From: Candidatus Helarchaeota archaeon
Lineage (GTDB): Archaea > Asgardarchaeota > Lokiarchaeia > Helarchaeales > RDOG01
Length of the DNA: 30,852 nucleotides
Assembly: GCA_029838215.1 (NCBI GenBank)
Contig: JALGVI010000035.1
Location: 1-30,852, forward strand
Direction of reading: 5' to 3'
Part shown: one piece after another, positions 19,562 to 24,457 of the stretch
How positions within the stretch are numbered: the first letter of the stretch is position 1
Layout: the number at the start of each line of letters is the position of its first letter
The notes under the pieces: generated by a model
What the model saw: only the letters and a program-made list of their open reading frames with translations
Databases searched by the model: none
Told to the model about the DNA's origin: nothing
Position numbers and translations under genes: made by a program

Positions 19562-19660
19562 TGGCGCCCCCGCCGGAATTTGAACCCGGGTCCCAGGAGA
19601 TCTGCTCTGATTTAACAGAATGACAGTCCTGGATGATAGACCGAGCTACACTACGAGGGC
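19562..19660 (-). tRNA. tRNA-Asp(GTC) with 21-nt intron at 37/38; CCA encoded
   Basis: Full cloverleaf: GCCCTCG/CGGGGGC acceptor, CAGGA/TCCTG anticodon stem, TTCAAAT T-loop. T6 tract downstream. Confidence 0.96.
19600..19620 (-). other. tRNA-Asp intron (canonical BHB)
   Basis: Central helix CTGT/GCAG, bulges CAT and ATC, intron stem TCTG/CAGA. Confidence 0.92.
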
Positions 19661-19942
19661 AGGGTAAATTTCAAGCTTAAAAGCTCAAGACAACCAGTTT
19701 CTCGTGCCACAAGGGCAAAACGCTCAACTAGTCGAAAACGTAACTCGAATTTAATATTTAAAGTTTTTTATTTAAGGTTTTGTTCCGGAAGATTTTATTA
19801 CATGATGCTTTGGCTAAAATTCTTCTCCGAAATCTATAAAAAATCGGTTTGTTTTATATTTCTAGACTTGGAGAAGGCAAGCCTTCTTCCTGTTCTAAAA
19901 GGTCCCTTGGTAGCTTAGACTGGCTAGAGCGCGGGGCTGTAG

Positions 19943-20011
19943 TATGTACACATGATAGACAGTGGAATGGCTCCATGGATGATATCATGACAGCATTAGT
20001 GACACGCAGTC
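19943..20011 (+). other. tRNA-Tyr anticodon intron, 69 nt, BHB-bounded, with internal K-turn hairpin
   Basis: Central helix CTGT/GCAG, bulges AGT and TCA. Internal CATGATA/TATCATG stem capped by tandem GA pairs and a GAT bulge. Confidence 0.9.
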
Positions 20012-20033
20012 ACCCTGAGATCGCTGGTTCGAA

Positions 20034-20064
20034 TTACTGATAACCTGACGTTTCAGTAAGAAAG
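20034..20064 (+). other. tRNA-Tyr T-loop intron (59/60), 31 nt
   Basis: Relaxed BHB: TTCG/AGAA helix with one G-A mismatch, bulges AAT and AGT, stem TACTGA/TCAGTA. Removal restores the TTCGAAT loop. Confidence 0.88.
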
Positions 20065-20095
20065 TCCGGCCCAAGGGACCATCTTTTATTTCATC

Positions 20096-24052: not shown

Positions 24053-24366
24053 GTGCGAATCACTAGGCGGAAAGCGTAGGCGGCTTTCCATAACAGCAAG
24101 TCTGTACGGCTGGCTGAATACCAATTGGAGGCTCGTGGAGCTCTAGCACGCCTTCCACTACCGTCCGACGATCCTCCGCCCTTGGGATGTGCCGTTACAG
24201 GCACCCTTTCGTAGGAAAGGGTCGTACTGTATTAAATGTCCGAACCCAGCGAGGCCCTGGCGGGAGCAGCGTAAGGGCTAAGGTCGCATGTTCAAGGTCC
24301 CCGGAGGGGAGGTCGCGTGGAAGAAACGACTGGAGTGAAACCCGTCGAATCTTGGGTGATTCGCAT
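24053..24366 (+). ncRNA. ffs: Signal recognition particle RNA (archaeal 7S)
   Basis: 12-bp terminal helix GTGCGAATCACT/GGTGATTCGCAT; Alu-like hairpins; helix 6 ACCCTTTC-GTAG-GAAAGGGT; helix 8 AGGCCC-TGGC-GGGAGCAGC; about 314 nt. Confidence 0.93.
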
Positions 24367-24372
24367 CACGGA

Positions 24373-24457
24373 GCGGAGTTAGTCAAGCTGGTAAGACGCA
24401 GGACTGCTAATCCTGTTCCCTCTGGGAGCGTGGGTTCGAGTCCCACACTCCGCGCCA
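24373..24457 (+). tRNA. tRNA-Ser(GCT), no intron, CCA encoded
   Basis: GCGGAGT/ACTCCGC acceptor, G73, long variable arm, CAGGA/TCCTG stem, GTGGG-TTCGAGT-CCCAC T-arm. Confidence 0.97.

Follow-up and report, generated by a model that had tools for sequence, protein, structure and literature searches.

The first intron of a tRNA-Tyr(GUA) gene contains a kink-turn (K-turn) hairpin followed, at a fixed distance, by a four-nucleotide strand complementary to the anticodon arm of the same transcript, and this module has a defined structure, is conserved across archaea, covaries in its stems, and keeps an invariant geometry. Judged by comparison of homologous sequences, the element is real, ancient, and under selection for both structure and geometry. 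The best explanation, to which we assign a probability of roughly 0.5, is that the intron serves as a cis-acting, atypical H/ACA-like guide, lacking both an ACA box and a lower stem, for pseudouridine 35 (Psi35) of its own pre-tRNA; the protein binding, catalysis, and order of events that such a guide would entail are what we infer. Throughout, the window denotes the whole stretch of DNA that was analysed, 30,852 nucleotides in length.

The tRNA-Tyr(GUA) gene and its two introns

Read from the sequence, the tRNA-Tyr(GUA) gene occupies positions 19904-20081 of the plus strand, on which all parts of the gene described here lie, with C1 at 19904, G37 at 19942, and A38 at 20012. The 5′ exon from C1 to G37 (19904-19942) holds the anticodon G34-U35-A36 at 19939-19941 and has the C1-G72 pair of archaeal tRNAs, a D arm of GCUU/GAGC, and an anticodon stem of CGGGG/CCCUG; relatives align with it. 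Intron 1 (19943-20011, 69 nt) interrupts the anticodon loop at the canonical 37/38 position, and its removal restores the loop CUGUAGA, a canonical splicing (BHB) motif being drawable around it. The gene continues from A38 to the T-loop (20012-20033/34), where a second intron of about 31 nt (approximately 20034-20064) is inserted, and relatives from genus g10 have a T-loop intron as well. The 3′ strands of the T-stem (20066-70) and the acceptor stem (20071-77), A73 at 20078, and an encoded CCA at 20079-81 complete the gene, which ends as CCGGC-CCAAGGG-A-CCA with its terminus at 20081.

This tRNA-Tyr gene escapes standard tRNA finders, and the element within it escapes canonical H/ACA descriptors. 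ARAGORN, run with and without its intron mode, did not call a tRNA-Tyr(GUA) gene at 19904-20081, and Rfam, at gathering and E-value thresholds, made no call for the gene and matched no family inside the intron. A BLAST search with the gene against 40 relatives recovered only T-arms of tRNA-Met; in place of BLAST, homologues were gathered by pattern and covariance-model searches. A home-made descriptor for canonical H/ACA sRNAs returned 11,051 matches in the host genome and was abandoned as far too loose. The gene sits within a cluster of RNA genes that also comprises an odd minus-strand intron-bearing tRNA, a tRNA-Arg with a 21-nt intron, an archaeal SRP RNA, and a tRNA-Ser, and the host genome belongs to the class Promethearchaeia (Asgard).

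Kink-turn hairpin, conservation, and spacing

The hairpin spans 19950-19990 and is closed by an A19950.A19990 layer, above which a 7-bp NC stem (C19951-A19957/U19983-G19989) leads to the tandem sheared pairs G19958.A19982 and A19959.G19981, a three-nucleotide bulge (G19978-A-U19980), and a C stem composed of C19960-G19977, A19961-U19976, a bulged G19962, and UGGA/UCCA, capped by an apical loop of AUGGC. These are the structural features of an L7Ae-type kink-turn (Kt-7 or box C/D type). Every base named in an initial annotation of this DNA was found in place in a sequence check, and the consensus K-turn hairpin that it described was borne out in its stems, tandem sheared pairs, and 3-nt bulge; the element as a whole is conserved, with covariation. 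Such a hairpin is rarely expected by chance: a loose K-turn-hairpin descriptor matched the 3.6-Mb genome 202 times when both strands were scanned, whereas shuffled sequences gave 79-92 matches, from which the expectation for a 69-nt intron is about 0.001-0.002. The z-scores of the folding energy are unremarkable, at -0.75 for the arm with the intron and -2.0 for the hairpin alone, and the case therefore rests on comparative data.

Across 44 relatives, the bulged strand reads AUGA in 40, and the non-bulged strand reads GA in 23 and AA in 20. The first sheared pair can form in all of them, the second is A.A instead of A.G in 20 of the 44, and most carry an extra unpaired nucleotide at position 3b. 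Given the A.A at the second sheared pair in about half of the relatives and the extra nucleotide in most, binding by L7Ae is no more than plausible.

An alternative reading takes intron 1 for a box C/D-type guide for 2′-O-methylation, like the euryarchaeal tRNA-Trp intron. The bulged AUGAU does resemble a C′ box, the non-bulged GA a D′ box, and the tRNA-Trp intron of the host genome itself looks C/D-like; however, the terminal box C/box D pair is absent, the C′-like box is separated from the nearest CUGA or CCGA by about 8 nt where about 12 would be expected, the D′-like GA is preceded by sequence that is base-paired within the hairpin, and Rfam finds nothing. Box content and spacing thus depart from the definition of the class, and this reading was rejected as almost certainly wrong.

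Conservation was assessed in two alignments. The first, A1, was an unfitted MAFFT alignment of 27 distinct sequences from relatives found by pattern search. The proposed structure pairs in 93.6% of its cells compared with 83.4% in shuffles, its covariation score was reached by none of 500 shuffles, and sliding the partner by a single column lowered pairing to 28-37%. Double compensatory changes were present at five of the seven pairs of the NC stem, all three of the C stem, and two of the three of helix B, the short helix on the 5′ side of the hairpin described below. A covariance model, R1, was built from A1, and the resulting 44-sequence model alignment, A2, gave the same picture of covariation. 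The expectation that the K-turn and both guide strands would covary in relatives was therefore realised for the K-turn stems and helix B, and helix A, formed by the proposed 3′ guide strand, has invariant target bases that leave no room for covariation.

Of the 151 Promethearchaeia genomes, the covariance model R1 matched 125, which represent 24 of the 29 genera, nearly every matching genome having one match, and the single match in the host genome is the element in the window. A further 18 genomes from other Asgard families also matched, some with K-loops and not K-turns. In every genome examined the element lies within a tRNA intron, of which it forms the interior, and is not an independent small RNA gene. 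A scan of species representatives with the pattern GAGC-N4-GGCUGUAG-N25-50-AUGA-N8-11-CAGY returned at least 118 stretches, and among the matches listed at least about 69 are archaeal tRNA-Tyr genes with the same layout, labelled as Woese-, Pace-, Nano-, and Aenigmatarchaeota, Thermofilales, Thermoproteales, Hermodarchaeota, and Promethearchaeota, and including Ignicoccus pacificus DSM 13166 and Thermogladius sp. KZ2Tp1. Stem complementarity and the non-bulged GA are present among these listed matches though the pattern imposed neither. In a sample of the DPANN phylum searched with the spacing fixed at 8 nt, 150 of 301 genomes matched, compared with one for a reversed control.

The most regular property of the module is its spacing. 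The distance from the K-turn GA to CAG, the C of which pairs with G34, is exactly 8 nt in all 44 Asgard sequences and in 68 of the 69 pan-archaeal matches listed, even though the pattern allowed 8-11 nt, whereas chance bacterial matches were spread over 8-11 nt. Once G1b and A2b are added to these 8 nt, the 3′ strand spans 10 nucleotides from K-turn to junction, and the corresponding ten layers in the window are two sheared pairs, seven Watson-Crick pairs, and A19950.A19990; relatives have G.U in place of the A.A, in addition to their unpaired nucleotide at 3b. All crystal structures of H/ACA ribonucleoproteins show a GA stem of 10 bp, which orients L7Ae toward Nop10-Cbf5, and the canonical rule places the K-turn or K-loop about 10 layers (range 8-11) above the pocket (PMC4652768), which is the distance found here.

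Proposed guide strand, three-way junction, and splicing fold

Directly 3′ of the hairpin, the strand CAGC (19991-19994) is complementary to G34-U33-C32-G31 of the anticodon arm (target-side strand at 19936-19939), and the resulting helix A is part of the minimum free energy (MFE) fold. This pairing, proposed in the initial annotation, was confirmed as complementarity, and CAGY is near-invariant, occurring in 43 of the 44 relatives in A2. Covariation could not be scored for helix A, as G31-G34 is invariant across all tRNA-Tyr examined and offers no variation; an optional fifth pair at position 30 in DPANN has G opposite C30 in only 3 of 10 cases and shows no clear covariation. The concern that CAGC might be a mere local duplication was not borne out: CAGC is itself the conserved element, and the second copy, GCAG at 20006-09, belongs to the splicing helix. 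Between guide strand and splicing helices lies a linker, AUUAGUG (19995-20001), conserved in relatives in neither length nor sequence.

Helix B occupies 19942-19949, consists of G37-C19949 and U19943-A19948 around a loop of AUGU, and contains the 5′ splice site (19942/19943). Its homologues are 3-bp helices in which G37 and intron bases 1 and 2 pair with the three bases immediately upstream of the hairpin, and they covary (GAU/AUC, GUA/UAC, GUC/GAC, GUU/AAC, and GGG/CCC). Many DPANN versions have no helix B, and there the hairpin begins two nucleotides after G37. With helices A and B in place, U35-A36 (19940-19941), the proposed target and its 3′ neighbour, are the only free nucleotides of a three-way junction, located where a stem as long as that of H/ACA RNAs begins, a geometry that rests on alignments A1 and A2 and upholds the earlier description of this dinucleotide as unpaired. 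A point against the guide reading is that, in the MFE fold of the window, U35 has a possible pairing partner in A19990.

The 5′ side had been described as a 7-bp pairing, with two G-U pairs, between this strand and a second, unspliced precursor. A self-complementary octamer, G37 plus UAUGUAC, does exist, but the 7-bp duplex with a second molecule lacks support: relatives keep only the outer two or three pairs (G37-C19949 and U19943-A19948 in the window), which form a helix in cis. The octamer fits a related possibility, namely that the excised and perhaps circularised intron is an atypical H/ACA guide that works in trans, either on further copies of pre-tRNA-Tyr, as the initial annotation proposed, or on a different RNA, for instance rRNA. 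The flanks of the hairpin would be single-stranded once the intron is released, and the covariation of helix B fits cis and trans pairing equally, given that both partners come from one gene. The loops of helix B, however, are 2-6 nt long in relatives, mostly 3-5 nt, with several resembling GNRA loops, and thus favour a cis hairpin; many DPANN versions lack any 5′ flank; and the 3′ guide matches the invariant anticodon arm of tRNA-Tyr, with no variable target. Action in trans is accordingly viewed as very improbable.

The remaining part of the intron concerns splicing. In the window, the intron fits the archaeal BHB type, with two 3-nt bulges (A36-G37-U19943 and U20010-C20011-A38), a central 4-bp helix in canonical hBHBh′ geometry between C32-U35 and GCAG at 20006-09, and splice sites after the second bulge nucleotide, the one on the 3′ side lying in the 3′ bulge (20010-20012). 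Flanking them are two outer helices, the anticodon stem and, on the intron side, U19945-U19947/A20002-A20004, where U19945-G-U19947 pairs with the ACA at 20002-20004. That triplet had been taken for the ACA box of an H/ACA RNA; it is present, yet it belongs to the BHB motif and is not conserved. It starts 11-12 nt after the stem and thereby departs from the canonical 14-16 nt, and at 13-16 nt from the stem none of the 44 relatives has ACA and 6 have ANA. There are no complementary 5′ and 3′ flanks to form the canonical lower stem of 7-9 bp, and on the 5′ side the hairpin flank passes directly into the tRNA exon.

Helix A and the BHB motif share bases of the anticodon loop, and helix B encloses the 5′ splice site, so the two folds must alternate. 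Drawn as described, the guide conformer has a nearest-neighbour energy of -13.6 kcal/mol and the BHB conformer -17.7, against -25.5 for the MFE fold, which contains helix A stacked on the hairpin; the energy model ignores contributions of the K-turn and of proteins. Use of helix A itself as the central BHB helix was considered and rejected, as it would put the splice sites 3 and 4 nt off the helix and leave a mature loop of 8 nt.

These relationships bear on whether the hairpin is a folding or splicing aid, in which L7Ae steadies the intron-side helix of a relaxed BHB or times splicing with no role in modification. The central BHB helix has only two or three of its four pairs in 29 of the 44 relatives, and in most of those other than the 12 considered next it is mismatched and overlaps CAGCCG, leaving the NC stem as the sole intron-side helix. 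Moreover, lineages bearing the module (Thermoproteota and DPANN) have splicing endonucleases of broad specificity (PMC5829648). Against this, a separate and complete central BHB helix located 3′ of CAGY occurs in 12 of the 44 relatives, all of which nevertheless keep CAGY, and the H strand lies 3′ of CAGY in 19. The window, genome G001, and 10 other relatives, whose complete canonical BHB makes no use of CAGC, keep both CAGC and the 8-nt spacing. CAGY is therefore more than just the splicing helix. Formation of helix A precludes the BHB helix and vice versa, and K-turn-type motifs are restricted to the tRNA-Tyr and tRNA-Trp introns among the 16 anticodon-loop introns of the host genome. A pure splicing aid is, on this balance, a rather improbable account.

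In the preferred guide reading, L7Ae would bind the K-turn hairpin at 19950-19990 before splicing, and the CAGC on its 3′ side would pair with G31-G34 within the same molecule, with a mini-helix closed by G37 and the first intron bases. U35-A36 would then be the sole free nucleotides at the three-way junction, ten stacking layers below the K-turn, and a complex of L7Ae-Nop10-Cbf5(-Gar1) would turn U35 into pseudouridine. Subsequently the RNA would refold, C32-U35 pairing with GCAG at 20006-09, the BHB would form, and the intron would be excised. Such a refolding step must be assumed, because the 5′ splice site lies inside helix B.

Measured against definitions, the element is not a canonical archaeal box H/ACA sRNA, having neither a lower stem nor an ACA. 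Its putative guide is nevertheless bipartite and keeps both the target U and its 3′ neighbour out of pairing, with a 5′ pairing of only 2-3 bp. In its sequence features it conforms to the structural definition of the atypical H/ACA-like class, apart from its lack of a gene of its own, and association with Cbf5-Nop10-L7Ae is predicted. The initial proposal of a self-targeting H/ACA guide accordingly survives in its K-turn, its 3′ guide, its free U35-A36, and the presence of the required proteins, and falls as regards canonical H/ACA membership.

Pseudouridine 35 enzymes and known systems

The host genome encodes Cbf5, Nop10, Gar1, and L7Ae, the last at G000:C71:9354-9614, and Cbf5 was found in all five genomes tested. 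A possible absence of Pus7/TruD had been named as a check on the guide hypothesis, and here the outcome speaks against a need for the guide: the enzyme, which makes Psi35 in Pyrococcus and in eukaryotes, is present in the host genome and in 60 of 61 relatives, as well as in 34 of 45 archaea from other phyla that carry the module. The host protein, encoded at G000:C61:12942-14246, is full length, has its catalytic Asp (GMKDKQ) as well as a basic amino acid within motif IIIa, and looks intact. No anticorrelation between the module and Pus7 was seen in the host genome, its relatives, or the other module-bearing archaea. As Pus7 looks intact and is widespread, a guide is not required for Psi35, and the situation is unlike that in Sulfolobales, where a crippled Pus7 has been replaced by a guide RNA (PMC2651775).

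The wide occurrence of Pus7 fits a different explanation, in which this protein works alone and the junction merely serves it as a scaffold: the intron would pair with G31-G34 and expose U35-A36, the K-turn hairpin would only rigidify the fold, and Psi35 would be intron-dependent as in eukaryotes. Consistent with this, Pus7 is present nearly everywhere the module occurs, the UA dinucleotide that archaeal Pus7 needs (PMC2651775) is exactly the unpaired one, and eukaryotic Psi35 requires both an intron and Pus7 (PMC12168002). On the other hand, the P. abyssi enzyme acts on U35 without any such structure (PMC2651775), and no connection of Pus7 to K-turns or L7Ae was found in the literature examined. 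A scaffold would also leave unexplained the K-turn in three phyla and the invariant 8-nt spacing, and we regard it as unlikely.

[quoted passage not shown] In the same species Cbf5 pseudouridylates uridines located 5′ of the hairpin on the same RNA, with 2-4 bp between the upstream bases and the 3′ guide, and P. furiosus proteins accept these lower-stem-less, ACA-less RNAs (PMC11077068). The ACA box is likewise dispensable for a typical unpaired UN, and pairing on the 3′ side of the pocket outweighs that on the 5′ side (PMC7075261). Guidance of this very modification is also documented: Sso1, a stand-alone H/ACA RNA, guides Psi35 of pre-tRNA-Tyr through the anticodon arm and the intron (PMC2651775), and deletion of sR115 in S. 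islandicus abolishes Psi35 (PMC11077068).

In the open-licence literature, no prior description of the K-turn/CAGY module in tRNA-Tyr introns was found, and the earlier statement that no intron-borne H/ACA counterpart had been described holds within that literature. A 2014 review names the tRNA-Trp intron as the only intron-borne guide (PMC4090602); Muller et al., applying a canonical descriptor to 48 archaeal genomes, reported no other tRNA-directed H/ACA guides; and a 2026 preprint on Asgard tRNA introns mentions neither Tyr nor K-turns nor guides. If the guide reading is correct, this would be the first pseudouridylation guide inside a tRNA intron acting on its own precursor, an H/ACA counterpart to the C/D guide of the tRNA-Trp intron, and a concrete function for a tRNA intron that ranks among the most persistent. 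Atypical H/ACA ribonucleoproteins would, in that case, extend from Crenarchaeota to Asgard and DPANN, and there would be an evolutionary route toward the intron-dependent Psi35 of eukaryotic tRNA-Tyr. The reading is directly testable, as the module occurs in the cultured Ignicoccus pacificus DSM 13166 and Thermogladius sp. KZ2Tp1 and Pyrococcus H/ACA proteins accept atypical guides. A broader and more tentative proposal, for which the odds fall somewhat short of even, is that the intron represents a ribonucleoprotein device of great age, present throughout archaea (Asgard, DPANN, and Thermoproteota), in which a cis-acting, ACA-less H/ACA-type guide would make Psi35 ahead of splicing. The stand-alone guides known from Sulfolobales, as well as the dependence of eukaryotic Psi35 on the intron, would then be derived states, and the universal retention of tRNA-Tyr introns in eukaryotes would trace to the same function.

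Among known RNAs, the element most resembles sR109, sR136, sR148, and sR563 of S. islandicus (PMC11077068), each a single K-turn hairpin with guide flanks and no lower stem or ACA; Pyrobaculum sR203-sR210 belong to the same atypical class, as summarised in PMC4652768. The atypical guides and the element alike leave UN unpaired at the base of the stem, and sR563 and sR109, which are self-modified by Cbf5 5′ of the hairpin, have the same cis topology as U35 here. The atypical guides are, however, stand-alone sRNAs that act mainly in trans on rRNA, whereas the element is located in a tRNA intron, joined to its target, and later spliced out. Its 5′ pairing is also very short (0-3 bp), unlike theirs, and its binding by Cbf5 is a prediction.

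The stand-alone guides Sso1, Sto1, Sac1, Mse2, Ape7, and sR115 of Sulfolobales and Aeropyrum share the target U35 and the pairing logic of the element: their 3′ guide base-pairs to the anticodon arm on the 5′ side of U35, their 5′ guide to G37 and intron bases, and their GA stem is equally long (10/5/9 fold). They differ in being encoded elsewhere in the genome, in hosts where Pus7 is crippled, whereas the host of the element has a Pus7 that looks intact. The C/D guide in the tRNA-Trp intron of Haloferax volcanii (PMC4090602) is, like the element, an L7Ae-type K-turn module directed to the anticodon region of the precursor that carries it, and it differs in belonging to the methylation class of Nop5 and fibrillarin, with another box architecture. 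Eukaryotic tRNA-Tyr has the same intron position and the same modified nucleotide, its universally conserved intron being needed before splicing, but its introns are short, contain no K-turn, and work with a protein-only enzyme, Pus7 (PMC12168002).

Splicing strand and proposed guide strand of the tRNA-Tyr intron

Within the tRNA-Tyr(GUA) intron, the segment containing the guide strand CAGC (TGACAGCA, window 19988-19995) and the segment containing the splicing strand GCAG (TGACACGCAGTC, window 20000-20011) look like a local duplication that would set guide and splicing strands apart. Comparable doublets (CAGCCAGCAGCC) occur in stretches L034 and L067, and the intron of the relative G001 reads CAGCC...ACAG.

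Two tRNA-Tyr copies lie ∼0.9 kb apart in one relative (L118, G020:C67:9730-10960), both carrying the K-turn module, with hairpin sequences that have diverged between the copies. In one MAG of the class, a 280-kb contig carries a tRNA-Tyr(GUA) gene that has no intron (L068, G110:C22:32580-33010), in addition to that genome's intron-bearing copy; the intron-less gene may reflect contamination, a second gene, or a mobile element. Genomes of 0.9-1.5 Mb are combined with DPANN-type tRNA-Tyr introns in many MAGs that carry the label 'uncultured Methanosarcinales' (records L161, L166, L174, L175, L201, L212, L214, L221, L236, and others), and these public labels are probably wrong.

Motifs of the stand-alone enzyme Pus7

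The Pus7 gene of the window's own genome, G000, lies at C61:12942-14246, within the stretch L050 (G000:C61:11442-15746). Its motif II reads D-K-Q, compared with D-K-E in the sister genus and D-K-R in G034, a relative of genus g10, and the basic residue of motif IIIa is retained. The archaeal Pus7 pair has been given as KR/RH (PMC2651775).

Other RNA genes and the tRNA-Trp intron

On the minus strand at window 19562-19660, ARAGORN reported a 'tRNA-???' of 99 nt whose anticodon has two bases (gt). This is probably a tRNA(GUC) gene that is interrupted by an intron outside the canonical position and mis-parsed by the program. The archaeal SRP RNA (window 24054-24365) is followed after 8 nt by tRNA-Ser(GCU) (window 24373-24457), an arrangement that suggests a co-transcribed RNA gene pair.

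The G000 gene for tRNA-Trp(CCA), which lies outside the window (G000:C75:7139-7278, minus strand), has a 63-nt anticodon-loop intron containing the box C/D-like motifs UGAAGA, CUGA, and GAUGAUG. It alone has box C/D-type K-turn motifs among the 16 anticodon-loop introns that ARAGORN called in G000, a set that excludes the tRNA-Tyr intron, which the program missed. These motifs suggest that the self-methylation guide of euryarchaeal type is also present, as a tRNA-Trp intron, in this Asgard archaeon.
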